From assembly GCA_013239625.1 (NCBI GenBank), contig MU053073.1, positions 1 through 33,981 on the forward strand: a DNA stretch of 33,981 nucleotides, given 5' to 3'. Every line of letters starts with the position of its first letter. Positions within the stretch are counted from its first letter, which is position 1. Shown here piece by piece: positions 16 to 26,911 of the stretch. Below the pieces are notes generated by a model. The model had not been told where the DNA came from. It ran no database searches and saw only the letters and a program-made list of their open reading frames with translations. The stretch comes from Lama guanicoe. Taxonomy: Eukaryota. A program made the position numbers and the translations under genes.

Positions 16-122
16 ATCAGAGTTTACTGGTTAGCTAAAGGGCAGAGAGCAAGAGGAAAATAAAAGGTAGTATTTGCTTTTAACAAAGCAGACTGGGTAG
101 TATGTTAAGTGTTAGGGTGGAC
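16..122 (+). repeat. 107-bp direct repeat, copy 1
   Basis: Ungapped match to 26805-26911 with 3 mismatches (positions 51, 60, 72). Confidence 0.97.
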
Positions 123-302
123 AGCATCAGCTGCTCTGCCTCCCGAGGGCAGGCCGGGAGGACTTCTGGACCCGGCGCAGCTTGGGGGGGAGGCCCCCGT
201 GCGCGGCCCAGCCAAGAGTGGGCATATGCCGGGATGAGGAAGAGGCGGGAAGGGAGGGGTTGTGGAAGGGAATGTGGGGGGCATGCCAGGGACCCCAACA
301 CT

Positions 303-370
303 AATAAAGAATGGACTCTGCTTCTCTTTTGTCTGAGACTCCGTTGCTGGGGTTGGGTTGGGGGGATGGG
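303..370 (+). terminator. candidate polyadenylation signal with U/GU-rich downstream element and G-quadruplex motif
   Basis: AATAAA 303-308; ttctcttttgtctg follows; G4TTG3TTG6ATG3 at 349-370. Confidence 0.4.
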
Positions 371-729
371 CTCAGTAGGCACATGGATGGGGCCGATGCA
401 CAGAAGGGCCGGGAGGGAGAATCACCCTTTCTCCTGGGAGAAACGGGTTTGGCTCTGCCTATGAGACCAGAAGAGGGTCTGGGCCTGGTCGGGCCGTGGC
501 CTGGAGAGAAAGGGCGTGCCTGGGGTGAGGACCTCCCAGCAAACCGAGGAAAGCAGGCAGGACCTGGGAGGTGGGGGCGGGTTATGAGGGGCCCTCTCAC
601 TTTTTACCCCCAACTCTGGCCCTGCACTGCCCTGCCCTCAGCTTGCTTTTTCCACCCTCAGCCTGAAAGCTGCCTACCTCCAGTTCTCATCTAAGAAAGT
701 CTAGGGGGTCCTTGATACTATAAGAATTG

Positions 730-1545
730 GGCACAAACACATCGTGGCTCACACAAAAACCATCTTATACACAGACAAAGGCAGATGTTAATATGCAAAG
801 CACACACCAGCACGAGTGTGCACTTACACACAGGACCTCATACATATGCTATCAACACATGTGCACAATGGTGTAGACACAGGTGACATGGCCGCCATGT
901 TACACAATGATACAGGGATCCACACACAGGACACATTCACTAGTACACACATGATATAAACACATGATGTATGTCATGGATAGAAGAGCATACAAATACA
1001 CGGTGACATTCACACAATAAGCACATTGGTTCCATCCATGTACACGATAGTAACAGGTTCATACATGATAAATATACAATAAAGACATGATGATGTATAT
1101 GTCTAGATAGAAATAAAAACATGTCATTGTATGTCATTACATACTTACGTGACTGTATGAGCTTGTGCCATTATATATTGTATAACGTCATGTAATGGCA
1201 TTCCTGTACATTTACCATAATATACGCGTTGTGATTTATACACTCACACAACCACAGCCTCACATGCACATCACAGCATACGACACCACAACAAGTAGAT
1301 ATATGTGCAATGGCGCACGCAGAAGCACGCACACCTATGTACCCAGTGAGACCCAGACACATAAGAGCATGCAGGCATACATATGGATGTGTGTGTATGT
1401 AATAATACAATGCCCCCCACATGTATAGATAAATGTCTGTTCTGCACATGCCTGTGATACACGTGCAGGCACATAAGGCGTGTGTACGTTGACATAAACA
1501 TCAGTGACACGCATCATGTAGTGGCGCACATATTCATCTGCACAC
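730..1545. repeat. degenerate CA/TA/TG-rich low-complexity tract
   Basis: About 800 nt of imperfect alternating purine-pyrimidine (cacacat, atgtgtgtat). Confidence 0.75.
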
Positions 1546-2329
1546 TGGGGAGTGAGGATGTCACCTCTTCCTTATGCGTGCCCCCTCCCCAGTGCCTATG
1601 TGGAGCCCACCCTTGGGCTCTGAGGCTCCGTGCTGCTGGTGCTCTTCCCTGGGGGCACCACACGAGGGCCCCCGACCTTAGCTGAGACTGGCTGCGGATG
1701 GACTGAGTCTCAGGTTCAGAGGCCTTGCTGAGGCCCTTCCCAACATCCGTGTCTCTGGGGACTCCATCCGGGCCTCTGCCCTCACATATAGGCTGACTTA
1801 CCGGTGGGGGAGTTCCTACATCCTTGTCCCCAAATGCCATTTTCCCATAGCTAAAAGGCCTAAGACTAGACAGAAGATGAGCGTCCTGACAGTCTGGGAC
1901 TAAGCCAGCTCAACAGGCCACGTGGCCTCCCCTGCTGGCCTGAGATAGCCAGGTTGCCCCCAAAACGCAGCCCGCCAGGAGGAAGCGGAAGCAATTCTCT
2001 CAGCTTATTTCCACCTCTGTCTCTTGCTTCTGTCTTCTTGTTTTCATTATCTTCATTTCTCTGTCTCTTTGTTTCATCTCAAATCCCATCTTTTCTATCC
2101 CTGCCATTCTCCATAGCGGGGTCTTTATCTGTCATACCAGTCCCTGTTTATGCCTCTACCAGGCTTGGGCTGGGACCAATGTGGGGAGGATTGCTGCCCC
2201 TCCCCCCGCCTCTGTACCCCGGAACATGGTGGGGTGTGGAAGGTCACATGTTGGGGGCACTGGGCCGAGATTCCGTAAAAAACCTGCTCTTCCCTCTGTC
2301 CCGACCCTGCCTGCTGGTCCAGCCCACCA

Positions 2330-2460
2330 GTCCAGCGCCATCACCATGGAAACCAGCAGCCGACTTCCTATTGGTGGGCAGGAGGGGAGGGGGAGGAGGA
2401 CGGGAGGGTTGGCTCTCCCCCGCTCACCCCCCTATTCTGAGGCTCAGCCCTCCTCCGTGC
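2330..2460 (+). promoter_or_regulatory. putative TSPOAP1 proximal promoter
   Basis: RFX X-box-like ATCACCATGGAAAC 2340-2353, inverted CCAAT 2370-2374, GGGGAGGGG Sp/KLF box; about 0.9 kb upstream of the ATG. Confidence 0.55.
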
Positions 2461-3307
2461 CCACCCTCTCTGGGCTCCGGGACTGGAGGGGACCCCTGCA
2501 GTCCCTAGAGCTGAGGCCAGTGGGGACAGAGACTATGAGGCAAGCAGCCCACCGACCCAGGCCTCCTTAGGACCAACCCAGCCACCCAGCAAGCTGGCGA
2601 GCAGCAGTGGAGAGAGGAGCAAGGAATAAAGGACCACAGCAGACCTTTGAGGATCACCCTTAGCAGCTCCTGTGGACCCTAGCCAGGCTGAGGGGTCCTG
2701 ATGGATGGCCAGACTTGCAGACGCTGATGGACACACAATAACAGCAATGCACACAGCAGCACAGCACTGAGACACTCAGACATAACCAGTGACAGCATCG
2801 CACACTGCCACAGCCCTGCAACACAGACACCCACCCCAACACACACACGGAGACAACTGGTAACTCTGAAACAGGCAGACGGTGACACCCAGAACCACCA
2901 CCCACCAGCACACAAGTGGGGGGTACCCATCCTCTAGACACATGCACGGAAGCACTGACCGGCACAGACAGACCTGGAGACACACGCACACCCGCACCCA
3001 GGCGCTGCTGTCAGTGGCCTCTGCGTATCCTCCCCACCCCCACGGGGACACCCTCGCTCTTCCACACACTCACGCGCACACACAGCCACGAGCAAACAGC
3101 TTGCATCTCCCCAGCTCCAGCTCCGGCAGCCCCGATTCCTGCAGCCTCCTTTGTGGGTGAAGAAGAACTCGGCCAACCTTGGATGGAGCTTTGGTGAAGC
3201 CAAGAGCTCAGAGAGGAAAGGGTCTGGCCTGGTATGACCCTTGCCAGCCCCTCTACCTGGCTGGGTGATGTCCCCCTGTCCGGGTCCTGGGGCCCCTTGG
3301 CAGAACC

Positions 3308-3637
3308 ATGGAGCAACTGACACCCCTCCCACGGCCGGGGGACCCTGGAAACATGGAGCCCTGGGCACTGGCCACTTGGCAGAGCTGGACTCCACATAAG
3401 GGGGGCGAACCTGGAGGCGCATCCCCCAGCATTGCTGACACCCCGGTAGCTCTGCATGTTGGAGAACTGAGGCCTGAGGAGAGCTCCGAGCCGGAGGGAG
3501 CCCAAAGATCCAGGCCTGTGGGGGGCATTGAGCCTGAAAGAGCAGAAACTGGGCTGCCCAGCCTGGGGCTGGGAGTGCTGAGCTCCAGACCCAGCTGCCA
3601 GAAGCTAGAGGACGAGGAGCTGGAGGCTTTCCCTCAG
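3308..3637 (+). CDS. TSPOAP1: coding exon 1 (MEQLTPLPRP...EAFPQ)
   Basis: Kozak gaaccATGG; donor CAG|GTAAGG; 330 nt. Confidence 0.95.
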
Positions 3638-4442
3638 GTAAGGGAGCTGTGGGTGGCTGGGGTTTCTGAGGCAGGGGCTCTCCAGCCTGGGCACGACAGG
3701 CAGCTTCACTACCCACCTCTCTTCTCCTGGCCTGTCTCCGTCTGCGGCTCCGTCTCTGTGACTGTCTGTCCTCCATTCTTGGGGCAGGAATCTCAGTGGC
3801 TCCATTTTTTGCCATCTGTCTGTCCTGACTCTCTCTGCCTGTCTGCCTACCTCTGGTCCTCCCCCTTCCCTCTTCCTCTGTGAGTCTCTCTCTGACAGTC
3901 TGTCTGTGTCTGTTTGTCTTCTCCGCAAATCTCTGTCCTTGGGGGCGAGAGGGTACCAGGGGTGTGTGGAGGTGTATGGTGGAATCAGAGTCCAGAGGAA
4001 GCAGATTCAGGGGAGGGGGCTCCGTGCTGGGCTGAGCCAGAGAGGACAAGGTTTGGGGTGGGTGTGAGCAGTCTCCTGCAGAAGACGGAGGGAGCAGGAC
4101 TCTAGGGAACTTGGGGGCCATAAGGAGCCTGGAGGAGTGGGAAAGGGAGCTCGGGCTGGCATTTCCCAAGAGGGCAAGATAGGCAGGGAGGAGAAGAACT
4201 GGGGACTAGCACAGAGGGTCTCAGGGTTGGGGGATGCTAGTGTCGGCAGAGAGGACTAAACAGCCCCTTCTCCCGGTTCTCTTGTGCTCCCCTCCGAAGG
4301 CCTGGGACATGGGGGAGAACCTCATGTCTCCTTGTATTGTGGAGGGGGAAAGGCTTCCATATGGAGGGCTCTGACTTCCAGAGGTAGGCTGGGTCCTTGA
4401 GGAGCTGCGCCCTGAGCTGGGTGGTGTCTTTTCCCACACCAG

Positions 4443-4550
4443 GGCAAGCTGAAAATGGGCTTTGGGGACAGGCCCAATCTGGAGCTGCTGAGGGCTTTGG
4501 GGGAGCTGCAGCAGCGCTGTGCCATTCTCAAGGAGGAGAACCAGATGCTG
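4443..4550 (+). CDS. TSPOAP1: exon 2 (GKLKMGFGDRPNLELL...ENQML)
   Basis: accAG| acceptor, CTG|GTGAGA donor; 108 nt. Confidence 0.95.
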
Positions 4551-4845
4551 GTGAGACTTGGAAAGCGAGTCCTGGGTCCTGGTTGGAGCTGGGGGGAGGC
4601 AGACTCAGACACCCTGGCCCTCTGCCTCAGCGCCCTCCTCCTCCCATGAACATCCCCCTCCAAGTGGGAGCTCCATGGAGCGGACATGACCTCAAGACCC
4701 AGAGAGGGTGAACCCCCACCTCACTGTGGGGTTGCCGAGGAACCCACTGTGAGCCCAGGGCTCTAGCCCTGGCCTGGGTTGTTAGGACTGGGTCTGGGGT
4801 AGGAGTGCTCCCCACATGCCCCAATTCTGGCTGACCCCTTGTCAG

Positions 4846-4974
4846 AGGAAGAGCAGCTTTCCCGAGACGGAGGAGAAGGTGCGGAGGCTGAAGCGGAAGA
4901 ACGCTGAGCTGGCGGTCATTGCCAAGCGCCTGGAGGAAAGGGCCCGGAAGCTGCAGGAGACTAACCTGAGGGTG
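4846..4974 (+). CDS. TSPOAP1: exon 3 (RKSSFPETEEK...TNLRV)
   Basis: gtcAG| acceptor, GTG|GTGAGG donor; 129 nt. Confidence 0.95.
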
Positions 4975-5571
4975 GTGAGGATGGAAGGCCTCTGGATGGA
5001 GGCTGGGCGACTGGGAAGAGGGGAGCCAGGGCTGGGCCTCAAGGGTGGGGCTTGGGAGTCAAGGACCCTTAACACTTACAATGCTTAGAACCTAGGAAAG
5101 CAGGAACCCAGGGGCCGAAGTGTAGGAAGGGCAAAAGCCAGCCAGGCTAGGAGGCTGAAGGTTTCTGGAGCTCAGGAGGGAGGGAAAGGCTGGGCAGGGA
5201 GTTCCTGAGCAGGCAGGGAGCAGGATTCTGGATTACCACGTGCTGGTGTTGGCTGCAGCCTCCCCCTGAGCTCCTCTCTGGGTGCAGAGCTGGCAGGGGC
5301 AGGGATGACAACCCATCACAGTGGCAGCCTTCAATTAGCAGCATCCTTTGGGTCTAAACTAGGATGTGCTGTTAACCCTTTCACTCCTGCTTGAAGATTG
5401 CTGGGATAGAGTAAAGGTGAGGCTGCTAGTCCCCTGAGGGTTGACCCAGTATAGAAGCAGGAGGCCATACTTCTAGGTTTTCATCCTTACCCCTCCTTTG
5501 GGAGGAGCTGAGGAGTGGGAGAAGTGTCCTATCCCTCAGGTGACAGTTCACCTTACCCCTCCCCTGGCCAG

Positions 5572-5751
5572 GTGAGTGCTCCTATGCCCAGTCCAGGGGC
5601 CAGCTTGGAGTTGTGCCGGAAGGCCCTGGCCCGCCAACGAGCCCGGGACCTCAGTGAGACAGCCAGTGCCCTGCTGGCCAAGGACAAGCAGATTGCTGCC
5701 TTGCAGCGGGAGTGCAGGGAGCTGCAGGCCAGGCTCACTCTGGTTGGCAAG
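5572..5751 (+). CDS. TSPOAP1: exon 4 (VSAPMPSPG...LVGK)
   Basis: gccAG|GTGAGT acceptor, AAG|GTGCGA donor; 180 nt, phase 0/0. Confidence 0.93.
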
Positions 5752-6044
5752 GTGCGAGGAGGCCCTGGTCACCCCTTTCAGCTCAGCCCGACACAGGGCC
5801 TTCTGCTTGGCAGTGTGGGATGTGGACGAGATGTTAATGAGATGCAAATGAAGAGAGAAGGTGGAGGCTGCTCGGGAGTAGGTTCCCCTGGCAACGGCCC
5901 AGGTGGGGTGGGGGAAGGAGGCTGAACCGAAGGGGGTGGAGCCATGAGTCCCAGACCTGGGAATTTCTGTGCTCCAGGCTTCAGGCTGCATGCCAATAGA
6001 TCTGGTTGTGTGAATCCACACATACCACACACTGGTGTGAAGAG

Positions 6045-6115
6045 ATGTTCACAAGGTATTTAGCACAGTGCCGGGCACACTGTGAGTGCCCAGTAAACGA
6101 GTTCCTTGGAATGTT
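6045..6115 (+). mobile_element. MIR/L2 3' tail fragment
   Basis: ttagcacagtgccgggcacactgtgagtgcccagtaaa resembles the MIR/L2 3' end. Confidence 0.7.
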
Positions 6116-6199
6116 TGCACACAGGCTAGCTGAAGCATGTGGCTATGTACGCATGCACCTATGACCAGGCATGTCTGCATGGGAGGATGTGCACGTTCC

Positions 6200-6990
6200 T
6201 GCGCACCGGAGCCCCTCCAGCCAGGCTGAGGGCGGCCTCTGTTGGGGATGGTGTGGGGCGGGCAGGAGTTAGGCCCAACTCTCCTCCTTGTCCCCCGACT
6301 CCAGGAGGGCCCCCAGTGGCTCCACGTGCGGGACTTCGACCGGCTGCTACGCGAGTCCCAGCGGGAGGTGCTGCGGCTACAGAGGCAGATCGCCCTGCGC
6401 AACCAGCGGGAGCCGCCCGCGCCGCCTGGACCTCCGGGCCCCGCCGTCCCGGCCAGAGCAGGGGCGCCTGCCCCTGGGGCTCCGGGAGAGGTGAGGGCCG
6501 GCGCAAGGGCAGGTGTGTGGGTGCGTATAGACAGGGGTGGGAGCGACTCGGGGGTCTCCCCCTGCACCGCGCTCAGAGCCCCGACGACGCAGCGGTGGCG
6601 GCGTGCGCACTGCAAGGCCTGGGGGCTCTCCAGCCCCCTCGGGCTCGTACCTGCGCTGCACCGGCTCCCGGGGGCTCGGGGTCCTCCCTCCGCGGGCCTG
6701 CGGCTCGCGAGCCCGCCCCGCCGCCCCTGCCGCGCCGCGAGTGGTACGGCCCGGCCGCAAATCCCTGGTTGCCCTGGCAGCCGCCCGGGGCCCAGCCCGC
6801 GCCTCCGCCTCCCGCAGCCGCTGCAGCGCGGGGACGCCCCTTTCAGCGCCCTCCTGGTCCTCCAGGCCCGGCCCGGCTACCCGCGGGCGGCGTGTGTCCG
6901 TCTGGGCTCCAGGTATGGGCGACCCTCGCTGGGCGCCGGGCTTAGGCGGCCCCTGCCCCCAGGGTTGGGGACCCAGCCCGGACCCCCAGA
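6200..6990. promoter_or_regulatory. intragenic CpG island (exon 5 / intron 5)
   Basis: Very GC-rich with dense CpG and several CCCCGCCCC-type boxes. Confidence 0.85.
6305..6490 (+). CDS. TSPOAP1: exon 5 (EGPQWLHVRDF...APGE)
   Basis: tccAG| acceptor, GAG|GTGAGG donor; 186 nt. Confidence 0.95.
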
Positions 6991-7645
6991 ACTTAGAGGT
7001 CTGGCTCCTCTCCATTGTCTGTACTGGGCAGCACCCAGGTCTACCTCCTTCTGGGAAGAGGGGAGGGAGAAGAGACTTCATAGCGATCCAGGCCTCAGGA
7101 TGCTTCTTGCTCAGATTTTGTCTCTCTGCCTGGTCCAGGGAGGGAAATGCATCGACCCATGAAGACCTGTCCTCCCAGAGAGTTTGCACGGATAACTGGG
7201 ACATGCGAGAGGGTGGGCTTGAGGGAAGCTGGGAGGAGGGTGTGGCCAGGTCTGCAGGGCTCTCCGCCAAGCCCAGATTTGGTGGATCCATGACCCCTAG
7301 CTCTGGGGACGCTGCATCCCTGGGGGCTCAGACAGCCGCCTAGTTCTCTGCCAGTCACTGAAGGACACCCGGGACAGTATTGAGTGCAGAGCAGCACTGG
7401 AAGCTAAAAAGGGAAAGCTTTGGCCTGGATAAGGGACCCATATCCCAGGGCAAGCGTGGATCTCAGGATCTCAAAAAACTACGTTGTTTAGAGGACACAG
7501 GGGTGTCTGATGGGAGGGAGTGGGCGGGGATCTCTTTGCTGACTGTGAGGTGCTTGGGAACCCCCCTCAGACAGGCTGGGCTGGGGGCAGACTGCCCTAA
7601 GGCCCTGTTCTCAGGTGCCAGCCTTCTGCCTCTGGCCATTTCCAG

Positions 7646-7723
7646 GCCACGCCCCAGGAGGATGTGGAAAACCCACCTGTGGTCCTAGGGGACCCAGAGA
7701 AACAGCAGAGGGTGCAGCAGCTG
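7646..7723 (+). CDS. TSPOAP1: exon 6 (ATPQEDVEN...VQQL)
   Basis: tccAG| acceptor, CTG|GTAAGT donor; 78 nt. Confidence 0.93.
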
Positions 7724-7806
7724 GTAAGTCCCAGGTCAAGGGTGGAGAAGACCTGTTGTGGGTAGATCTGCCTTCCCACACGAGGAGCTCCATTCTGACC
7801 CCACAG

Positions 7807-7890
7807 GAATCCGAGCTCAGCAAGAAGCGGAAGAAATGCGAGAGCCTGGAGCAGGAAGCCCGGAAAAAGCAGAGGCGATGTGAGGAGCTG
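7807..7890 (+). CDS. TSPOAP1: exon 7 (ESELSKKRKK...CEEL)
   Basis: cacAG| acceptor, CTG|GTGAGC donor; 84 nt. Confidence 0.95.
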
Positions 7891-8136
7891 GTGAGCTCTT
7901 GAGGGCCTCCTGGAGGCCAGCTCCTCCCTTCCCTCCATCGGACCAGCTGGGTGGTGGGCTCCGTCTCGGCTCTGCTGCCTTCCCTCCTGCCCTGAGAGCA
8001 CGCCATCCCTCCCTTGTGCGGGGCTCTCCTTTCCAGGCTGATGCAGGTTCCAGGTTGGGGAGGGCAGGGTCCTCTGTGTAGGGGAGAGGAGGAGTGTGGA
8101 TGCTGGGACCCTCCCCAGTGTCCTCTGGTCTCTCAG

Positions 8137-8226
8137 GAACTGCAGCTGAGGGAAGCCCAGACTGAGAATGCCCGCCTCGTGGAGGAGAACTCTCGGCTCA
8201 GTGGGAGAGCCACGGAGAAGCAGCAG
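8137..8226 (+). CDS. TSPOAP1: exon 8 (ELQLREAQ...EKQQ)
   Basis: ctcAG| acceptor, CAG|GTAGCA donor; 90 nt. Confidence 0.93.
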
Positions 8227-8427
8227 GTAGCAGCTCTGCCCAGGTGCGGGGCTGGGCTCCTGCTCCTGTCCTGGGCCCCAGGCAAGGGGCTGTCCCCTCC
8301 ACCACCCCACCCCGATCTGGGCTAGAGTATGAAGCCTGCTACTCCCCCACACCCTCGCCCCACCCCCATGAGGATGCTGAGGGGATGAGGCTCACACACC
8401 TGGCTCCCTGCCACTCTGGCCTTCCAG

Positions 8428-8550
8428 GTGGAGTGGGAGAATGCAGAGCTGAGGGGCCAGCTCCTGGGGGTGACACAGGAGAGGGACTTGGCCCTTCTCA
8501 AGAGCCAGGGCCTGCAGAGCAAGCTGGAGAGCCTGGAGCAGGTGCTGAAG
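8428..8550 (+). CDS. TSPOAP1: exon 9 (VEWENAEL...QVLK)
   Basis: tccAG| acceptor, AAG|GTGAGG donor; 123 nt. Confidence 0.95.
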
Positions 8551-8822
8551 GTGAGGGGACCGTGTGTGTGTGTGTGTGGGGGGGGAAGGGTGCCGGTCCC
8601 TGGCACGGGGAAGAAGGAGGACAGTGGCATATACCCTTTATTGGGCCCTGGGGTCTAAGGCTGAGTCCTGGTGCCGCTGGCCCCTTTCCTTCTCTAGCCT
8701 CAGTTTCCTTTTTAGCAGAGACTATCTAGAACACATGGTGTCTGAGGCTTCCTCGTGACTTAGGTCTTCTGTAAACACAGTAGAGCAGGGCTCTGGCCTT
8801 GACCCAGGCTCTTGCATTTCAG

Positions 8823-8927
8823 CACATGCGGGAAGTGGCCCAGCGGCGGCAGCAGCTGGAGGTGGAGCATGAGCAGGCCCGACTCAGCCTGCTGGAAAAG
8901 CAGGAGGAGGTCCGGAGGCTGCAGCAG
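8823..8927 (+). CDS. TSPOAP1: exon 10 (HMREVAQRR...RLQQ)
   Basis: ttcAG| acceptor, CAG|GTGGGG donor; 105 nt. Confidence 0.95.
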
Positions 8928-8989
8928 GTGGGGCAGGGTCTGGGGGGGGGCAGGAGTGGGGGAAGGGTGATAGGCTGCCGGACCCCAGC

Positions 8990-10060
8990 TTAATCATCAC
9001 CCAGCCGATGGGCGTCTACTAAGAACCTAGTGGGTAGCAGGCACAGGGAGGACCGTAAGGGGCAAAGACCAGGTCCCTGACCAATCAGCGCATAAACAGA
9101 TCCACGCATGAGGTGGTCCCAGTCATTGACGAGTCAGTGGGGGAAGGGTAATGTGACACAGAGTGGCTGGGGTGGGGTGAGGGGCCGCTGCTTTAGAGAG
9201 GTCAGCCTTGAATACCTCCCGGGCCAGGAGGAGCCAGCTGATGAGCACCCCTCATGGGGTTGGGGAGGGGAATAGAAGTGCCAGGGCCCTGTGGTGGGAA
9301 AGAGCTTGGGGGTCCAGACCAGGTCACTGGAATATTGTAGGCTGGACAGAACAGCAGGAGTAGGCAAGAGCCAGATCACCTCAGGCCTTAACGATCTTGG
9401 GAAGTTTGGATAGCTTGCTCTCTGAGTGGTGAGAAGCTGTTGAAAGGTCCTGAGCAGGCGCATAGCGAGATCTGATCCCTCATTTTAGAGGATCGCGTTG
9501 GCTGTGCTGCGGAGGGTGCCGAGGGAGTGGGCGTGGAAGCGGGCAGTCAGGTGGGAGAAGATGGCTGTCTGGACTAGGGTGCAGAGATGCAGGTGGAAAC
9601 GAGTGGACGGATTTGAAATTTATTTCGGAGACAGAATCGATCGGACCCACTGCAGGATTCCAGCTGAGGCCCCGCTCTTTCATCCCTTTGCTGATTAAAT
9701 GGAGGTCGAGACTTTTCATCCCCCAGGAAGGAGGGAGGAGGGCAGCAGATTTGAGAGGTGGGGAATCCTGAGTTCTGCATTCTGTGTTGGCCAAGTTTGG
9801 GTTGTGTGCTACACACTCAAGTGGAGGTGTCCATAGACAGCTGGGTTTATGAGCCCAGAGTTGTGGGAAGTTGGTCTTGTAGATCGTTTTGGAGTATTCG
9901 ATGCGTCTAGTCGCATGACTAGACGGGACCCTTTGGGGGAAGAGTGTAGAGTACGAGGCAGGCTTAGCACTGTACCCTGCGGCACCCTAACATTCAGAAG
10001 GGGTAGAAGACAAGCAGGCTGAAGAGGCTGAGAAAGGACAGAGAGAGAGGCAGGGGACCG
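8990..10060 (-). mobile_element. LINE-2 fragment
   Basis: Typical antisense L2 motifs (ggccctgtggtgggaaagagcttg; tcattttagaggatc; caagtggaggtgtccatagacagctgg). Confidence 0.75.
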
Positions 10061-11821: not shown

Positions 11822-11894
11822 GTAAGGTTGACCCCAGTGACATTAGCCTGGAGTCCCCAGGCCTGGGGCTTTTGTATGGAGCAGAGTTCAGGGT

Positions 11895-16659: not shown

Positions 16660-16892
16660 GGCCTGTGTAATATGACAGTTTTCAAACGTACAGAAATATT
16701 AAAGAATGCTACAGTGAACACCTATGTACTCACCACTGTAGATTCAACGGTTGTCAGCATTTTGCCATAATTGCTTTTTCTATGTGTGGGTTAAAAAAGA
16801 AAAACAATTTAAAAGCAAGTCGTAGACAGATGACATTTTACCTCGACACCCTTCAACATGCATCTCCTTAGAACATGAGCGTTCTCCTACAT
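16660..16892 (-). mobile_element. ancient L1 3' end fragment (L1MC-like)
   Basis: ttcaaacgtacagaaa...gtgaacacctatgtactcacca...cttcaacatgcatctcct...ttctcctacat. Confidence 0.7.
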
Positions 16893-17029
16893 TCCTGCAG
16901 CATCAGCATCACCCGGGAGCTTGTCGGAAATGCAGACGCTCAGCCCCACGCAGACTTAGCTGAGTTAGAATCTGCGTTTTAACAAATCTCCGGGTGATTC
17001 CTCCGCACAGTAACGTCTAAGCCGCACTG
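16893..17029. mobile_element. MER5-like hAT-Charlie DNA transposon fragment
   Basis: cagcatcagcatcacccgggagcttg..gaaatgcag...gaatctgcgttttaacaa...ggtgattc. Confidence 0.8.
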
Positions 17030-17239
17030 TCCTGTATTACCGCGGTGCTCTGAAAATGAACCCTAACGCCCTAATGCAGACCTTGACCGCTCTTGTCGTT
17101 TAAAAGTGCTGACAGGTCACTGTTGATCCGACTCAAATGCTTACGATCGCCCACTAACTGTTGCTCAAGTGCACTCATTGGACTGCGCGGTCTCTCTGCC
17201 TCCTCTCTGTCTTCCCCTCCCTCGCCCTCCCTCTGCCAG

Positions 17240-18070
17240 GAGAGCTCGTGGACGGCCGAAGAGGCCTGGTCCCTTCCAATTTTGTAGAGCGGGTGTCCGA
17301 CGACGACCTCCTGACGTCCCTCCCTCCGGAGCTGGCCGATTTGTCCCACAGCTCAGGCCCCGAACTCAGCTTCCTGAGCGGAGGGGGGGGTGGCAGCAGC
17401 AGTGGGGGCCAGAGCAGCGGGGGACGCAGCCAGCCAAGACCAGAGGAAGAGGCCGCAGGGGACGAGCTCGGTCTGAGCCCCCCGCCCGAGGGCCTGGGGG
17501 AGCCCCCAGCTGTGCCTTACCCCCGAGGTCTGGCCATCCTCAAGCAGCTGCCCCACAGCGTGGTGCTGGCCTGGGAGCCGCCTCCCAAGCAGGTGGAGCT
17601 GCGGGGTTACCATATCTGTGTGGATGGGGAGCTGCGTCAGGCCCTGGGGCCCGGGGCGCCCCCCACGGCTGTGCTGGAGAACCTGGACCTGCGGGCGGGG
17701 CCCCTCCGGGTTTCCGTGCAGGCCCTGACCAGCCGGGGCAGCTCTGACCCTCTACGCTGCTGCGTGGCGTTGGGTGCCCGGGCCGGGCTGGTACCTAGCC
17801 AGCTGCGGGTCCATCGACTGACAGCCACGTCTGCTGAGATCACCTGGGTGCCCAGCAATAGCAACTTGGCCCATGCCATCTACCTCAATGGGGAAGAGTG
17901 CCCCCCTGCCCGTCCCAGCACCTACTGGGCCACCTTCTGCCACCTGCGGCCTGGTACACTCTATCAGGCCCGAGTGGAGGCTCAGCTCCCACCTCGAGGG
18001 CCCCGGGAACCAGACTGGGAGAGGCTGGAGCAGCAGGCTGCCACCCTGCAGTTCACCACACTCCCAGCAG
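17240..18070 (+). CDS. TSPOAP1: exon 17 (GELVDGRRGLVPSNF...FTTLPA), end of SH3-1 plus FN3-1/2
   Basis: gccAG| acceptor, CAG|GTATGC donor; 831 nt. Confidence 0.96.
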
Positions 18071-18245
18071 GTATGCGTGCTCGGGCACCTGGTGTCTGTA
18101 ACATTCGGGAAGAAGGTGTCAGGCCACAGGTGCTGGTGGAAGGGGAGGCTGTTGCTACTTGTGTTTTTAGGGACATGGAAAAGTGGGCTGTTACCTCTGG
18201 CGGTGAGTGTCCTGCATTAGCGGGTCTTGTGCCCCCTTCCTGCAG

Positions 18246-18397
18246 GCCCGCCTGATGCCCCCCTGGATGTGCAGATTGAGCCAGGGCCCTCCCCTGGAAT
18301 CTTGATCATCAGCTGGCTCCCAGTAACGATTGATGCTGCTGGCACCTCCAACGGCGTCCGGGTCACAGGCTACGCCATTTACGCTGATGGGCAAAAG
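18246..18397 (+). CDS. TSPOAP1: exon 18 ([10 protein letters not shown]...ADGQK), FN3-3
   Basis: tgcAG| acceptor, AAG|GTATGG donor; 152 nt. Confidence 0.96.
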
Positions 18398-18509
18398 GTA
18401 TGGCCTGGGGACTCTGCCCATCTCTACTCTAGGAGCAGGATGTAGGTCTCTCCTTGCCATGCTCAGAGGCCTGGTCTCCCCAGCCTGGCACAGAGATGCC
18501 CGGCATTTG

Positions 18510-18665
18510 GGCACTGTGTAACAGATTGGTTAAGAGCATGCGCTTTGGTAGCAGGTGACTGGGATTCAAAAACTGCTCCACCACTGAAGCCACGTGGCCA
18601 GGAGGCTCAGATGAGATGAGGCGCCAAAGGCTCAGTGCAGTGCCCGACATAATGCTGCTGTCATG
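18510..18665 (+). mobile_element. MIR fragment
   Basis: ggttaagagcatgcgctttgg...tgggattcaaa...gctccaccact. Confidence 0.6.
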
Positions 18666-18727
18666 GTGTCCTCACACTTGGCCATCTCAGCCTCCCTTTC
18701 CCATCCTGTGCTCCCTCCACCCTGCAG

Positions 18728-19105
18728 ATCATGGAGGTGGCCTCGCCCACAGCAGGCAGCGTGCTGGTGGAGCTGTCCCAGCTTCAGCTGCTGCAGGTGT
18801 GCCGCGAGGTGGCCGTGCGCACCATGTCGCCACACGGCGAGTCGGCCGACTCCATCCCGGCTCCTGTCGCCCCAGCCCTGGCCAAGGCTTGCTTGCCAGC
18901 CAGGGTCTCCTGCCTCTCACCACGACCAGGCTCAGAGGCCAGACCACCCCTTGCCCCAGCCTCCCCAGGTCCTGGGGACCCTAGCTCTTCCCTTCGGTGC
19001 CCTGACCCCCGTGGAACTCAAGAACCCCCCGGGGCCCCCCCAGCAAGCCCTTCCAGAGAGACACCAAAAAGATCCCAAGCGGAGCGCCCAGCACCTTGCT
19101 CCCAG
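18728..19105 (+). CDS. TSPOAP1: exon 19 (IMEVASPTAG...APCSQ)
   Basis: tgcAG| acceptor, CAG|GTACCT donor; 378 nt. Confidence 0.94.
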
Positions 19106-19190
19106 GTACCTCGCTGGGGAGCGGAGGAGCAGGTGGAGGCTGGGAGAAGGGTCTGGGGCTTGGACTCTTCCTCGGTACCTGCCATTCCAG

Positions 19191-19430
19191 GAGGAGGCCG
19201 GGGCAGCTGCACCGAATGCCTCAGGGGACAGGAAGGCCAGTGAGCCATCCTTGGAAGAGCAAGTTCCTGGCCCTGCTGTTTCCTCCCTGGCCAAAGAGGA
19301 GGCTGAGCAGACCGCGGGAGAGGCCCTCCCGGCCCCTGGCTCCACCCCGGCCGCGCTGGCCCAGAGGCTGCCCTGTGCCGAGGCCTGCCGTGGAGGGGAC
19401 ACAGGGTCTGCGCTGAGGCCCAGGGCTGAG
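19191..19430 (+). CDS. TSPOAP1: exon 20 (EEAGAAAP...RPRAE)
   Basis: tccAG| acceptor, GAG|GTATGG donor; 240 nt. Confidence 0.92.
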
Positions 19431-19773
19431 GTATGGGGCTGGGGACACACTGGGACCCCTCAAGGAATCGGGGTCCTCCTCTCTGCCTCTGCCAGTCAAA
19501 GTCTGGTTACCCACTCTGTTCCCTGCTCTGCTCTGGCTTTGTTCTATGCTGTGTATGGCTGTTTCTTTGTCACTTTATCGTTCAGATTTCTTTCCCTCTT
19601 GGCTGCCATCCTTCTTCCTCACCCCCAGTGTGCATCTCCTCCATTTGGGGCATGACCTTCTCTCCTGCCAAGGGACCCCGTTCATTCCGGCTGGGGCTGA
19701 CCCTGCCCGAGTCTGCCCACCCCCTGGGGTTGCCTCACTGCCCTCCCTTCCTCCTTTGTCTTTGCTCTTGCAG

Positions 19774-19950
19774 CGGGAGGACACAGCAGAGCTCGGGGTC
19801 CGTCTGGGGAACTCTCTTGTGGACCATGGCCGCAATTCAGATCTGTCAGATATCCAGGAGGAGGAGGAGGAGGAGGAGGAGCTGGGTGTCAGGACTTGCT
19901 CTTTCCAGAAGCAGGTTGCTGGCAACAGCATCAGGGAGAAGGGGGCCAAG
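19774..19950 (+). CDS. TSPOAP1: exon 21 (REDTAELG...SDLSDIQE8...KGAK)
   Basis: tgcAG| acceptor, AAG|GTAACG donor; 177 nt. Confidence 0.94.
19858..19881 (+). repeat. coding (GAG)8 poly-Glu
   Basis: Counted directly in exon 21. Confidence 0.95.
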
Positions 19951-20541
19951 GTAACGGGGTGAGGAGGGGCTGGTGGGCCCTAGACCCCTGGTTCCAGGGA
20001 CCTCTACCCCACGTGTCAGCAGCTGCTCCTGCTGCCACCGAGTGCCAGAGGTGGTCTAGGTGTGTGGCCCGAGCCCCGTCCTGTGCCTCAGATAGGAAGT
20101 GGCTCATGCTTTGCCTCTGCCCTCCTGGGAGGAAGGGAAGATGAGGCGCTCTTTTCTGCATCTTCTCCTGCTCAGACCCTCCAGAAGCAGTGCCCTGGCC
20201 ATCTGAGAGCCTGATGTTGGGAGCTTCCAGGGAGGGGGCGGGAGGCCTCCCTGCTATTACAGGCATAGCCTGCTCCCTGATGCTCTTGCCTCTCGGAGGG
20301 TCCCAGCGTCCGTTCAGCCTCTTCCTTGGGAGTGTTCCCTAATTCTTCCTCTCGCTCTGCCCTGGATGTGCTGCGTGGCTTGGGGCCAGGCCTCTCTTTC
20401 TGGTCCTTCCTTTTGGAGGAAGCTGAGGGAGGGCTATGGGGTTGCCTACAACCCCTGCCCTCATTTGAGGGCTAAGGTCACAACTCTGTCCTTTTCCTAC
20501 GGACCTCTCTTCCCTGCTACCCTCCCCCCCCCCACCCCTAG

Positions 20542-21408
20542 CCTGAGCCCGAGCCCTGCTGTGAGACTGACAGCGACGAGGAGATCTTGGAGCAAATCCT
20601 GGAGCTGCCCCTCCAGCAGTTCTGCAGCAAGAAGCTCTTTAGCATCCCTGAGGAGGAGGAGGAGGAGGAGGAGGAGGAGGAAGAGGAGAATGCGGAGAAC
20701 GAGGAGAATGAGAAGAGGCCAGGGGCAGGCTGTTCCTTCCGAGACCCTGGCCCACCTGAACCTGCATTGCTGGGGTTGGGCTGTGACAGCGGTCGGCCCC
20801 GAGGACCTGGTCTATGTCCCTTGTCTCCTGAGCCCTCCAGAGCTGGGGACCGCCCAGAGGACATGCCTGGACTAGTTGGTGGAAGCAGCTGGAGAGGAAG
20901 AAGTGGGTCTCCTGAGAAGCCCCCAAACCGCAGGCGGTCCCCAGATCCCCGTGAACACTGCAGCCGGCTTCTCAGCAACGCCGGGTCCCAGGCCTCGGGA
21001 CGACCAGGCCCCGCACGGGAGAAGGGTAGCCCCACTGTGGTCGAGGGCAGCAGGGCTGGACCAGAGGCTGGTGGGAGAGGGCGGCCAGCTCACTCGAGGA
21101 AGTGCACCCGTGGCCGGGCCCCAGAATCCAACCTGGCCAGCTGCCTCTCCCCGAAGTGCTTGGAAATCAGCATCGAATACGATTCTGAGGAAGAGCAGGA
21201 GGCGGGCGGCGGGGGCGTCAGCTACACCGGCTCCTGCCACCTCGGAGATGGGGAGGCCTGGGGCACAGCCCCCGTAGGAAGGCCGCGGGGGCCTCCTAAG
21301 GCCAGTTCAGGCCCCAACCCCTACCCACGCCTCCCGGCCTGGGAGAAAGGGGAGCCAGAGCGGAGAGGCCGCAGTGCAACTGGCAGAACCAAGGAGTCAC
21401 CCTCCCGG
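20542..21408 (+). CDS. TSPOAP1: exon 22 (PEPEPCCETDSDEEILEQ...KESPSR)
   Basis: cctAG| acceptor, weak CGG|GTCCGT donor; 867 nt, phase 0/0. Confidence 0.9.
20650..20688 (+). repeat. coding (GAG)10GAA(GAG)2 poly-Glu
   Basis: Counted directly in exon 22. Confidence 0.95.
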
Positions 21409-22047
21409 GTCCGTGCCCACTCCCCACCCTGGGCAGCCCCCTGCCTGCTGCCACCTGGTGGCCCTGCTTGCTGCCCACCGGCTGCTCCCATTCCACGCTG
21501 CCGCGTCCATCAGCAGAGGTGGGGCCGGGCCTCCGGGCTCCCTCACCGCCTCCTCCCGCCCACATTCCACTGCTTTGCTGCTTCTGCCGATTGGAACTGG
21601 GATGCACAGTGTTCCGCTGTCATTAGTCACCAGCCAGCCAGGCCCCTGCCTTCGGGCAGGGTGGCCCCTCCCTCTGCTTAGCTAATTACATCTTCAGGAC
21701 ACTGAGCGTGATATCCAGCATCACCCAACCCTGACGCCGAGAAGAGGCCCTCTCCCACGCTCCTTGGCCAACTCTAAGATCTAACCTTAGTCCCCTCTAC
21801 TGCACTCATCTACTAAGGTGGCTGGAGCTGGGGCCTCCCCTCCTGCCCTTCCTCCCTCCATGGGGGTGTCTGATGTCCCCAGCGAGGCTGGGCCACGGCT
21901 CCAGGAGAGGAATGTGTGTCCCTGCTCTGCTGTGCCGCTCACGCTGCCAGGCTGAGCTGGGGGAGTGCCTGCGGGTCCTACCCCTGCTGAGGTGCCCGCT
22001 GGAGGGATGGTGTGTCACTTCTGCCATCTGTTGCACTCTCTTTGCAG

Positions 22048-22147
22048 GCAACAGAGACTGGGGAGCCCAGAGGGCAGGCTGGCTGTGGGCGGAGGGGCCC
22101 CCTGCGGAGAGGGGCCCGGGGGTCCAGGCCAGGCCCCACCGAGCTGG
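22048..22147 (+). CDS. TSPOAP1: exon 23 (ATETGEPRG...PTEL)
   Basis: tgcAG| acceptor, TGG|GTGAGC donor; 100 nt. Confidence 0.92.
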
Positions 22148-22233
22148 GTGAGCACCTGATGGGGGCTGGGCTAGGCTGAGCGGGCAGCCCTGCCCCCTTG
22201 ATCAGCACTTACTGCCGTTGCTCTCCCCCACAG

Positions 22234-22388
22234 CCCCTCCGAGGAACCCTCCAGAAGCAGCGCTGGCTTACCAGGACCTACCCATCAGGGTCTTTGTGGC
22301 TCTGTTTGACTATGACCCCGTGTCAATGTCACCCAACCCTGATGCCGGGGAGGAGGAGCTCCCCTTCCAGGAGGGCCAGATCCTGAAG
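22234..22388 (+). CDS. TSPOAP1: exon 24 (PPRNP...VFVALFDYDP...QILK), SH3-2
   Basis: cacAG| acceptor, AAG|GTGACT donor; 155 nt. Confidence 0.95.
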
Positions 22389-22434
22389 GTGACTGACTCA
22401 CTGCCAGGTCCTTCCTCCCTCCTTCCCTGCACTG

Positions 22435-22660
22435 GAGGGATGAGAACGCAGCTTCTAGAGCCAGATGCTGTGGGGTCGGGTCCTGATGCTGCCACTTCTA
22501 GCTGTGTAACCTTGAGTGGATTAACTAACTCCTCTGGGCCTCGGTTTCCTCACTGGTGAGAGGGGGGTAATGTCAGTGTCTACCTCACAGGGTTGTTTGA
22601 GGATTAAATGGCTCAGTGCCCATAGAACGCTGACTGACTGTTAACATCATAGCTTTTATT
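22435..22660 (+). mobile_element. MIR
   Basis: gccacttctagctgtgtaaccttgag...ctctgggcctcggtttcctca...acctcacagggttgtttgaggattaaatg. Confidence 0.88.
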
Positions 22661-22957
22661 GTGCCTCCAAGCATTTTTTGAAGGCTTTTGGCCATTGCTC
22701 TGAGGTCAGGGAGATCTAGTCTGGGGTGGGCTGGGGGAATGGATGTGCAGATAGTGGGCGATGGTCATGCGGAAAGGGCTGTTTTCTCTCATCCTTCTGA
22801 TCCTTATTTTTGGCCATTTCCTTATCTCCTGTACCATGGCGTGCTGAAGGCAGAGCATTCTCCTGTAGTCCCAAGTGTGGTGCTGCAGGTTCTGGCCTGG
22901 AGCGCAGGGAGCAAGCTCAACTGGCCTCCTGAGATAACTGGTCTTCTTCACCTCCAG

Positions 22958-23126
22958 GTGTTTGGGGACAAGGATGCCGATGGCTTCTACCGGGGTGAAG
23001 GTGGGGGCCGGATGGGCTACATCCCCTGCAACATGGTGGCCGAGGTGGCTGTGGACAGCCCTGCCGGGAGACAGCAGCTGCTCCAGCAGGGTTATTTGTC
23101 CCCTGATGTCCTTGTTGAGGGTCCAG
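22958..23126 (+). CDS. TSPOAP1: exon 25 (VFGDKDADGFY...GYIPCNMV...EGP), SH3-2
   Basis: tccAG| acceptor, CAG|GTATGA donor; 169 nt. Confidence 0.96.
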
Positions 23127-23509
23127 GTATGACCTGCTCCTGTCCCTCACCCACCTCTCGCCACCCCATTTCCAACTCAAACCCTGGCCCCACCCCAACC
23201 CTGGCCCAAGCAGTTTGTCTGTCTGGAGTGGCCTGGGTGCCTCATTCATCCACCGGCAGAGCCACTGGGGCCTTCAGGGACTAAGGCGAGTATGGCCACA
23301 GCAGCGAACTTTCCACATGGAATGGGGGTCTGTTGCAGAGGAGATGGGCCATGGATTTTGGATCCTGGAGGTTGGGGATGGGAGAGAAAGGCCTTTCAGA
23401 AATTTGAGTACAGGAACCCTGGCACAGCCCCAGAGGAGCCTCTGGAGTCACTGTCCTATCTCCCTCCCTGCCTCGGTTTCTCTTACATGTCCTTGCCTTT
23501 CTGGACCAG

Positions 23510-23581
23510 GGAACGGTCCCTTTGTGTACTCCACAGCCCGCACAACTGGGCCTCCCCCCAAACCCCGCCGCTCCAAGAAAG
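23510..23581 (+). CDS. TSPOAP1: exon 26 (GNGPFVYS...PRRSKK)
   Basis: accAG| acceptor, AAG|GTGGGT donor; 72 nt. Confidence 0.92.
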
Positions 23582-23999
23582 GTGGGTGAGACCCCCCTTC
23601 TCCCTCGGGGCCTGTGGATGAGGGGGGTGGAGGGCACTGCTTGGCTCTCTGGGGAGATGCAGGTGAGGTCCTGAGCAGGTAAAGGGAACCAGGGCAGATC
23701 TTCACCCACAGCCATCCCTTCCAGTGGGGAGCTTCATTCTAATGGGGATGGGGAGCAGTTTGCTGGGACCTCAGTTCCAAAAAGCACCCCACTATAAGTT
23801 CTACGCAACCTGGAGAAGTCACCTACCCTTTCGGGGCTTTAATTCCTACCAAAGCTAAGGGGCTGGGCTACTGTGCTCTCTGGGTGTCCTTCTGCAGCCC
23901 TTGGCTGAGGCTGAGCATCCTGCCTGCCCTTGCTCCAGCCCCCACCTGGGATGAGGAGGGACGCGAGGGGCGGGGCTCATGGGCACATTCTCTCCACAG

Positions 24000-24032
24000 C
24001 TGAATCGGAAGGCCCTGCGCAGCTCTGTGCAG
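24000..24032 (+). CDS. TSPOAP1: exon 27, 33 nt (AESEGPAQLCA)
   Basis: cacAG| acceptor, CAG|GTGAGG donor; phase 1/1. Confidence 0.88.
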
Positions 24033-24207
24033 GTGAGGGGCCATCCCTGAAACAGAAAGAGGTGGGGCGGGGCGGCCCCTCTGGCCTCTCCCCAGGGCCT
24101 GCGACTAGTGGGGCGTGGTGGATAGGGTCAGCAGGCCTCTGTGTGGAGGATAGTATAGGGCGGGGGAGCCTAGGAGAGTCCTGTGTCTTCTCCCCCACCT
24201 CCTGCAG

Positions 24208-24311
24208 ACCCACTCCAGCGGGTCTCCTCTGCTGGCCTGGAAGCTCCCCGCGGCATGGTGGCTGCCTTTGACTACAACCCCCGGGAGAGCTCCCCCAACA
24301 TGGACGTGGAG
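24208..24311 (+). CDS. TSPOAP1: exon 28 (...MVAAFDYNPRESSPNMDVE), SH3-3
   Basis: tgcAG| acceptor, GAG|GTGAGG donor; 104 nt. Confidence 0.95.
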
Positions 24312-24399
24312 GTGAGGGCCCTCTGAGAGCCCAGCCAAGGCGGGGGGTGGCAGGGCCTCCCTCCCTGGACCTGATAACTGCCCCTTGGTCTCTCCATAG

Positions 24400-24471
24400 G
24401 CGGAGCTGCCCTTCCGGGCAGGGGACGTCATTACAGTGTTCGGGGGCATGGACGATGATGGCTTCTACTAT
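24400..24471 (+). CDS. TSPOAP1: exon 29 (AELPFRAGDVITVFGGMDDDGFYY), SH3-3
   Basis: catAG| acceptor, TAT|GTGAGA donor; 72 nt. Confidence 0.95.
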
Positions 24472-24675
24472 GTGAGAACATGGGGGTGGGGGAGTGCCCC
24501 TGAGGCGGGGAAGGGGGATGAGCAACGTCTCCTGATGGAAGCCTGGAGGAATGGACTAGGTCACCTTCCATGATTGTGACCTTGAGCCCGGGTGGTTCCC
24601 CCAGGGCTTCAGAATCAAGGGGGTGGAGCTGAGGCCTCTTTCCTGGTCTCAGTCTCACCAGCATCTCCTCCTCAG

Positions 24676-24786
24676 GGGGAACTGAATGGACAGCGGGGCC
24701 TGGTTCCATCCAACTTCCTGGAGGGCCCTGAGCCTGAGGCAGGTGGCTCAGACAGGGAGCCTGGGACACCCCAGGCAGAGGGGCAG
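24676..24786 (+). CDS. TSPOAP1: exon 30 (GELNGQRGLVPSNFL...AEGQ)
   Basis: ctcAG| acceptor, CAG|GTCAGT donor; 111 nt. Confidence 0.95.
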
Positions 24787-25422
24787 GTCAGTGAGGACCT
24801 GGGCTCCCAGTTCAGCAGTTGGCTCTCCTCACTGTTGGTGTGGTGGTGGGGGCAGGATGGCGTTGTGGGAGAGGTGCCTCTGGGCTGTGAGCCAGGTGTG
24901 CCCTGTGCCCAGGGCGGAGCTGCTGAGCCACATACAGCCAGAGGGCGCCCAGCTGGGGTGGCTCCCTCCCAGCATGTGCCCCTTTCTGAGGAGCGGGGAG
25001 GCTGCCACCTCTATCTCCGGCCCATCTGAGCTGGCTGCCCACACCCCGGGCCAGTGCAAGTGAGGGGCCCTGTGGAGAAGGACTCCAGATCTCCCCCCAC
25101 CTCTAACCGTCATAGCCCCCATTACAGTACGCCCCCTGCCCCCTTGCTGTATCTCCCTGTCTCCCAGGTGCCTTTTAAGGCCAGTTGCCCAGCAAGGCCC
25201 AGCTTCTTGGGTGGGTGGAGTACAGTGAAGCTCCAGGCTCACAGGATAGGGAGAGGATGAGGCCAGAGCCCCCAGTGGAAAACCCTGGGCCTCCATCTGC
25301 AAAGGGGCTTTGCAAAGCAGGGCCAGCCCCTGCGACCTGGTGACCTGGCGACCTGGTGACTGGGTGGAGAGCATGTGGGTCTGTCCATAACCCATCTCCT
25401 CTCTTTGTCCCCTGTTCTTCAG

Positions 25423-25452
25423 AGAACGAGGAGGAGAAGAGTCCAGTGCTAG
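25423..25452 (+). CDS. TSPOAP1: exon 31 coding part (RTRRRRVQC*); exon probably extends to 25484
   Basis: ttcAG| acceptor; matches recalled human C-terminus; GTAAGT donor at 25485. Confidence 0.92.
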   Translation, partial: RTRRRRVQC

Positions 25453-25684
25453 ATGGAGATAGATATATGTAGAGAGAGCGACGTGTAAGTGGGGACTGAA
25501 CCCCATGTCCATGTGACCCTGCTCTTTGTGGCACTGTAATCAGACAGCGCTCCTTTGTCTCTGACACTGGAGCTGACCTGGCTTTCCCCCGCTTCTTCCA
25601 GGGAACAGGGGAGGGAGATCTTGCCGTGATCCAGATTCGGTTATAGGATCATCCACTCCCCTTGCCTTACTCCGGGCGGTGCCA

Positions 25685-25895
25685 GCTGTCATAGGAATAC
25701 ATGTCATCATAGTATATAATGTCCCATGTTAGCTGACTTCTCATATTCTATAGCTCACGCGGCTTATAGAATATTATGTGACATCCATACTGTGACTCGT
25801 CAGTATATTATGATACTGTATGACTATGGTATTATAATATGGTTATTATTATTGGTGACAGAAGGTTGATGCTATGATGCCACCAGTAATAATAG
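25685..25895. repeat. AT-rich low-complexity (TAT/CAT) tract
   Basis: Abrupt drop in GC with repeated attat/catag words. Confidence 0.6.
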
Positions 25896-26804
25896 TCTCC
25901 CCACCCTTGTCCTCTGCATCATGACCTGTTAGGGGATCAGATGCATGATTTTATATCCAACTCTCAATTTTCTCTGCTCGGGGGAATAAAAGAGGAGGCT
26001 TAAACAGTTGGAGTTCGTAGGTAACCCCAAACCATTCATCTCTGGGGCTCAGAGACCCCTTCCATTTGTTTCCCCAGCAACCTCTCCCTTCTGGGAACCC
26101 TGGGAGGGAGTGGGAAGGGCCTGGCCCCTGCCACCCAGCCAATAGCCCTGGCTGGTTGGCAAGAGATTCTTTGACCTTTAGGTGCTAGGAGACCTCTCTG
26201 TGGGCAGGCCCTGCCACATCGCCAGGGTCTTGAGTGTGGGCCCCAGGCTGGGCACCTAGCTCCTGCCTCCGGCCTGGGCTCTGTGATTGGCCCTGCCAGC
26301 AGATGGCCAGGCTCTGGTGGAAGCCGGAGTTTGAGGAATGGAGTTGGGGGCAGGGGTGGAGAACGCACAGGCTGGCAAGACCTGACTGGGTGGTACCAGG
26401 CACAGGAGGGGATGTCAGCGATGTTGGGGCACTTCCTGGTGGCTCTCCTGTTTGCTCAAACCCTGCCCTCAGGCCACTAGCAACACAGTCTGGGTGGGTG
26501 GGTGGCAAAGGGAGCCAGGAGTGGGCAGGGCCGCCTCCGGGGCGATGCCCAACTGTGAGTGTCCTCTGCCCTGGGCTCCCTGCAACCCTCTCGGGGGCCA
26601 TTCAGGGAAGAGTCCGGATCTCCTCTCTCTGGAGTGGGCACTGGCTCCACTCTCTGAAGGCCCACGTGGGCATGCTCCTTCATCTGAGAGGTGGTGCGGA
26701 AACTGCCCTCCCTGGAGTGTTGGGAGGGGATGACGTGGGGGAGCTGGAGCATCTGTCCTGAGGGTCAAGTCCAAGGACGCTGTCAGCCCAGCATCCTACA
26801 GAGG

Positions 26805-26911
26805 ATCAGAGTTTACTGGTTAGCTAAAGGGCAGAGAGCCAGAGGAAAGTAAAAGGTAGTGTTTGCTTTTAACAAAGCAGACTGGGTAGTATGTTAAGTG
26901 TTAGGGTGGAC
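26805..26911 (+). repeat. 107-bp direct repeat, copy 2
   Basis: Ungapped match to 16-122; differences at 26840, 26849, 26861. Confidence 0.97.

Follow-up and report, generated by a model that had tools for sequence, protein, structure and literature searches.

The TSPOAP1 gene and its place between two repeat copies

The window, i.e., the whole 33,981-nucleotide stretch of Lama guanicoe DNA that was analysed, carries the gene TSPOAP1 (RIMBP1) on a G+C-rich block that lies between two direct copies of a 107-bp sequence. The main features are as follows.

1..15, forward strand: left flank of copy 1, 40% G+C, with TGTA at 1-4, 58 nt 5' of an AATAAA
16..122, forward strand: copy 1 of the 107-bp repeat, 39% G+C
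123..26804, forward strand: G+C-rich block between the copies, 26.7 kb
3308..25452, forward strand: TSPOAP1 (RIMBP1) coding region, a spliced model of 30 GT-AG exons and 1860 aa
25423..25484, forward strand: stop-bearing exon (RTRRRRVQC*), followed directly by a GTAAGT donor at 25485
26805..26911, forward strand: copy 2 of the 107-bp repeat, 42% G+C, with AGTAAA at 26848

The spliced TSPOAP1 model is free of stops, frameshifts and other disabling changes, and it matches the Camelus isoform P0129 at 1807 of 1850 aligned residues (97.7%). The exon at 17239-18069 matches TSPOAP1 of Vicugna pacos at 100% and that of Camelus at 96% identity, which bears out the gene name given in the earlier note. 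On the evidence of its coding sequence, the gene between the copies is an intact camelid TSPOAP1; a decayed paralogue is ruled out by the intact coding region, which carries FN3 and SH3 domains. The Camelus TSPOAP1/RIMBP1 models P0002, P0003, P0132 and P0134 resemble it in these domains and in the 97.7% identity of the coding region, whereas they end in a KKE exon, which the sequenced part of the window lacks. The donor at 25485 scores 5.2 bits, where donors in the window range from -6.2 to 12.2, and its partner exon was not found in the window's sequenced bases.

Besides the TSPOAP1 promoter, every coding exon of the VQC-ending isoform and 1.3 kb of the next intron, the block probably contains the 3' part of pri-miR-142, an assignment made from the spacing of the human signals and from synteny, miR-142 lying just upstream of TSPOAP1 in mammals. 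The following feature is relevant to this assignment.

303..308, forward strand: AATAAA with a T/GT-rich run 3' of it, the likely homologue of the proximal pri-miR-142 signal (a weak match)

According to PMC3827369, the human pri-mir-142 has poly(A) signals 327 and 978 nt past the hairpin, i.e., 651 nt apart. The window has a TATAAA at 955, 652 nt beyond the AATAAA at 303, and this near-equal spacing, itself a weak match, suggests that in the unrearranged locus the hairpin would be found shortly beyond the left end of the window. A miR-142-3p motif was present in one metagenome contig and in none of the genome contigs; the metagenome contig is fish-like and could not be aligned to this region.

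The two 107-bp copies are 26,789 nt apart and align without gaps and in the same orientation at 104 of 107 positions (blastn E 8.5e-46), and in an alignment of the flanks the identity outside both copies, on either side, is at background. The repeat search and blastn thus reproduce exactly the coordinates, orientation, spacing, identity and sharp ends reported earlier. Of the window's 16 direct-repeat families, this pair alone exceeds 34 nt; its longest perfect run is 50 nt. The mismatches are 51A/26840C, 60A/26849G and 72A/26861G, and in all three the A is the copy 1 base. Three mismatches in 107 correspond to a divergence of 0.6–8%, a range that does not establish the recent origin claimed in the earlier note.

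Several identities of the 107-mer could be rejected. A poly-A tail or a short target-site duplication is absent at both copies, as had been noted before, and this is also the state of class 2 insertions. The window contains zero Rfam families at gathering score, an Rfam search of 1-400 returned three chance-level matches with none on the repeat, and the folding of the repeat is ordinary (z of 0.53 to -1.82 in 8 folds). A snoRNA, miRNA or tRNA, or any other structured RNA gene, is ruled out by this ordinary fold, which is not unusually stable, and by the lack of an Rfam or ARAGORN match. An mRNA retrocopy (class 1 insertion or L1 retrocopy) is ruled out because the tail-less copy continues ~58 nt beyond the hexamer, well past the likely cleavage site. 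An LTR element or MITE, as the 8-bp inverted pair TG...CA of copy 1 might suggest, is unsupported, given the lack of a target duplication and of the pair at copy 2. Exact patterns from the 107-mer had 0 matches in viral, metagenome and genome contigs, and 1-140 had zero blastn matches to plasmids and phages. A 54-aa frame that spans the 26804/26805 junction had only two weak matches, to repetitive proteins, and was rejected.

A terminal exon missing from the sequenced bases

The C-termini of 181 homologues fall into a conserved KKE exon of ~59 residues (92 homologues), the RTRRRRVQC ending (70) and other endings (19). KKE forms are seen in C. dromedarius, C. bactrianus and C. ferus. One fused model, from the last of these species, has MPO directly after the KKE exon. 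The RIMBP1 KKE C-terminal isoform is conserved from camels to primates. The place of the KKE exon is downstream of the VQC exon, since the window has that exon with its donor at 25485 and the intron ahead of the KKE exon aligns with read-through models from other mammals.

The KKE exon was found on neither strand of the window by hmmsearch (best score 6.4 bits; control exon 1e-23), nor in 24001-33981 and 1-3300 by a frameshift-tolerant DNA scan, which gave 22–24 bits against a null of ~22, with controls at 152, 56 and 46 bits. No MPO exon is present in the window. None of the 37 matches to the KKE region is from Vicugna or Lama, and the sole V. pacos model ends as a read-through into an intron. 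This model may share its assembly line or origin with the window, and thus we do not count it as independent evidence. A single feature bears on where an unsequenced exon could lie.

30728..31306, no strand: assembly gap of 579 N, the only spot in the window able to hide the KKE exon

The gap starts 5.2 kb past the donor at 25485, and the KKE exon could be inside it if the gap is under-sized or the intron long. In human TSPOAP1, the last intron is ~2 kb and the last exon ~1.2 kb, sizes that argue against an exon in the gap. Additionally, there are no signal hexamers from 30601 to 32249, and none follows the gap before 32250. Copy 2 had previously been assigned to a presumed 3'UTR, which is not established: the terminal coding exon is absent from the window's sequenced bases, and copy 2 is therefore placed outside an intact 3'UTR.

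Base composition changes at the inner edges of the repeat. The left flank (40% G+C), copy 1 (39%), copy 2 (42%) and the DNA 3' of copy 2 (45–51%) are A+T-richer than the block ends, of which the first 100 bases have 74% G+C and the last 100 bases 63%. The steps are thus from 39% to 74% at 122/123 and from 63% to 42% at 26804/26805, as if the block were set into A+T-richer DNA. For the left flank, which is 15 bases only, a content of 6 G+C favours a source at 42% over one at 64% by ~6 to 1. We infer that bases 1..15 are native 3'UTR upstream of the repeat, although they could also be junction filler; they have no second match in the window with up to 2 mismatches allowed.

The flanks share a short motif, given here with its position.

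26789..26795, forward strand: CAGCATC, 10 nt 5' of copy 2, repeated at 122-128 and with its complement at 7-13

A 7-mer common to three of four random flanks occurred in 270 of 200,000 draws, CAGCATC having been spotted post hoc. We leave it without explanation because of this post hoc choice, because it is frequent in the window (22 sites) and because its register does not suit a simple switch. The longer sequence TGATGCTG at 6-13 is complementary to 122-129 and forms an 8-bp inverted pair at copy 1 only; an 8-mer common to two of four random flanks occurred in 11,743 of 200,000 draws.

The 107-mer looks like a whole, putative poly(A) cassette. Copy 1 has AATAAA at 59..64 on the forward strand, CA at 84-85 and 89-90 (20 and 25 nt on) and then a G/T-rich run, with TGTA 5' of copy 1 only. 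Copy 2 has AGTAAA at the equivalent position, and among 12 hexamer variants tested this is the earliest signal hexamer beyond 25985; copy 2, which we propose as the poly(A) site in use, hence bears the weaker hexamer. It is from motifs alone that we infer a working poly(A) site. Neither the poly(A)-cassette appearance of the 107-mer nor the absence of the terminal coding exon was recognised in the earlier note.

Origin of the repeat pair

The repeat is real in the assembly and, to judge from the features described above, likely marks a larger rearrangement than the small patch proposed earlier. An origin of the repeat by templated insertion, through break repair or template switch, as that note had it, is plausible in kind, but a patch of 107 bp set between an intact upstream region and an intact 3'UTR does not account for the missing exon, the poly(A) anatomy and the G+C step at the inner edges.

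Our preferred reading, which we hold tentatively and which could well be correct, is that a template switch set the 26.7-kb TSPOAP1 block, lacking the last exon, down behind the gene's own putative poly(A) region, and that the 107-mer is the overlap which this left. The ancestral order would have been miR-142, the block, the last exon, the 107-mer and the downstream DNA. A germline fork that had reached the end of the 107-mer would have jumped back to position 123, copied the gene as far as its last intron (26804) and rejoined 107 bases behind its exit point, as in FoSTeS/MMBIR. On this reading, copy 1 would mark where the original last exon truly ended, in what is now an upstream position. 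The last exon would have been lost at the left edge of copy 2, and the window's gene would use copy 2 as its poly(A) site. This gene could make the VQC-ending protein and would be unable to make the KKE-ending protein, and the KKE exon is predicted to lie upstream of base 1.

We favour this single-event reading because it explains the repeat, the missing exon and the composition together. In geometry, the block is flanked by direct copies of a sequence whose identity as the recipient would follow from the same reading. The missing exon and the G+C steps point to junctions that the ancestral allele may have lacked. As for filler, CAGCATC is found at three of the four flanks in a register that is wrong for a simple switch, and microhomology is not demonstrable at 122/123 or 26804/26805 from the window alone. 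The lack of demonstrable microhomology counts against the reading, as do the weaker hexamer of the copy that should be in use, the shortness of the left flank and the chance that the KKE exon is inside the gap. Further, a second surviving TSPOAP1 copy should yield a second V. pacos protein, and none is found among the homologue matches, in which alpaca coverage amounts to one model. A baboon alternative tail that resembled the repeat or its upstream flank by eye was rejected as no better than shuffles: the baboon downstream tail had no significant alignment to the repeat and flanks (40–186 of 250 shuffles reached the score in all 8 tests). Since the tail did not align, the repeat stays a putative ancestral 3' end.

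It is possible, though rather unlikely, that the 107 bases alone were copied as a break patch, either as a class 2 templated insertion or through a local switch of template. The recipient would most likely be the 3' region of pri-miR-142, and the last exon would be in the N gap or lost separately. The size of the 107-mer fits the experimental range for class 2 insertions of 73–414 bp (PMC5110952), as does its lack of a tail and target duplication. Similarly, the complementarity between positions 6-13 and 122-129 is what a fold-back filler would give, and the passages of PMC3827369 on the human pri-mir-142 report no signal where the AATAAA of copy 1 would fall. However, such a patch needs a second, unrelated oddity within a few kb (the exon in the gap or deleted), has no signal hexamer after the gap before 32250, and leaves both the G+C step at the left edge of copy 2 and the poly(A) anatomy to chance.

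An assembly artefact seems unlikely to us. It would involve mis-ordered contigs or a chimeric tip, so that a single site, read twice or through two alleles, gave both copies and the last exon fell out of the assembly. Copy 1 starts 15 bases from the window edge, the window contains a gap and all three differences are A in copy 1, as such an error might produce. Nonetheless, there is no N at either junction, two separate mis-joins would have to be no more than 107 bases apart, and three differences in 107 bases between alleles have a probability of 0.1–1.7% at an assumed heterozygosity of 0.2–0.5%. We consider it improbable that the 107-mer is a piece of a young dispersed repeat, or that the gene block was taken in by a foreign locus: nothing links the sequence beyond 26911 with the TSPOAP1-MPO interval and the window is without an MPO exon, but the repeat has no tail, tRNA-like head, shared terminal repeat or Rfam/tRNA match, the 8-bp inverted pair is at copy 1 only, and independent insertions that share both ends at 97% identity would be unusual.

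Known systems and significance for camelids

The kind of mechanism is already known, and the TSPOAP1 locus would be a new instance of it. In the human insertions described in the sections of Gu et al. (2016, PMC5120786) to which we refer, the fork resumes at a more proximal position, which duplicates the insertion site, and, as proposed for TSPOAP1, the copied segment has a direct copy of the recipient sequence on either side. Those cases differ in being human clinical rearrangements, mostly interchromosomal, with one sized site duplication of ~182 kb among the cases in these sections. At TSPOAP1, donor and recipient would adjoin, with an overlap of 107 bp and putative breakpoints. The class 2 insertion polymorphisms treated in the parts of Onozawa and Aplan (2016, PMC5110952) used here resemble the 107-mer in their size of ~100 bp and in having neither a poly-A tail nor a short target duplication, whereas their donors are distant and intact; here the donor would be 27 kb off, and an exon is missing from the sequenced bases nearby.

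The earlier suggestion that the repeat could mediate deletion of the gene by single-strand annealing is possible, but such deletion is likely weak. In the portion of Mendez-Dorantes et al. (2018, PMC5959236) considered here, direct repeats supported deletions even with a break 28.4 kb from a repeat, but these were 287-bp reporter repeats, in comparison with 107 bp and a longest perfect run of 50 bp at TSPOAP1. A divergence of 1–3% strongly suppressed deletion even with the 287-bp repeats, and we thus expect little from 107 bp at 2.8%.

No paper on TSPOAP1 in alpaca was found in the open-licence PMC and bioRxiv literature, BZRAP1/MIR142 methylation and short motifs had no match in the literature text, and the gene name TSPOAP1 is absent from the searchable supplements of PMC8151252, PMC13260204 and PMC13371160.

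Extended to the family, the preferred template-switch reading would imply that South American camelids carry a shuffled locus, with the last exon and poly(A) site upstream of the gene's own promoter, behind miR-142. The sole gene copy would end on a duplicated 107-bp cassette, and an event that joined both ends of the gene would have cost the lineage the KKE isoform and rewired the 3' end of pri-miR-142; we regard this extension as doubtful. If an assembly error is the cause instead, it would account for the wrong alpaca gene model. If the template switch did occur, the locus would be a case from nature, either fixed or still segregating, in which template switching inserted a gene-sized segment and duplicated a short stretch at the site. 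A presynaptic scaffold protein would thereby have lost one of its conserved C-terminal isoforms, and the DNA right behind miR-142 would be altered.

Candidate 3' ends of TSPOAP1

In the Vicugna pacos TSPOAP1 model (P0001; window 24787-25180), the last SH3 exon is prolonged to about 24896, from where the model appears to splice onward to about 25170, and its C-terminal end, PGAF, is found in no other homologue of the set (n = 181). Three further sequence signals could supply TSPOAP1 with a replacement last exon or with a 3' end that lies further upstream:

25602, strong acceptor-like site, unused (13.8 bits)
25985, AATAAA
26078, strong acceptor-like site, unused (11.6 bits)

The C. ferus model (P0134) joins MPO in frame to TSPOAP1; this fusion is most likely an annotation join, and the model is informative here for synteny only.

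Repeats and low-complexity tracts

The following elements were recorded in the window:

750-1550, A+T-rich low-complexity tract, near one TSPOAP1 end
15190-15310, minus strand, tRNA-like SINE
25690-25990, A+T-rich low-complexity tract, near the other end
32240-33170, plus strand, broken LINE-1 ORF1 remnant (Pfam Transposase_22 and Tnp_22_dsRBD)

No tandem array was called at either A+T-rich tract. The SINE appears similar to the camelid type, and 27500-27800 may be an old LTR fragment on the minus strand, judging by its appearance.

miR-142 words and the mir-142/RIMBP linkage

Copy 2 of the 107-bp repeat (26846-26866) has short matches to two pre-mir-142 words given in PMC9905709, AAAGTA and GTAGTGTTT. 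These matches arise from the two G variants of copy 2 and are absent from copy 1, so that a miR-142-3p seed match lies on the minus strand of copy 2; the matches are probably due to chance.

On the fish-like metagenome contig L001, retrieved by the miR-142-3p motif, mir-142 at 2273-2357 (Rfam match) stands tail-to-tail with a RIMBP-family gene, whose last SH3 exons are at 3427-4841. In mammals, mir-142 lies upstream of TSPOAP1 on the same strand. Thus, the linkage of mir-142 with the RIMBP family is old, and its orientation in L001 differs from the mammalian one.
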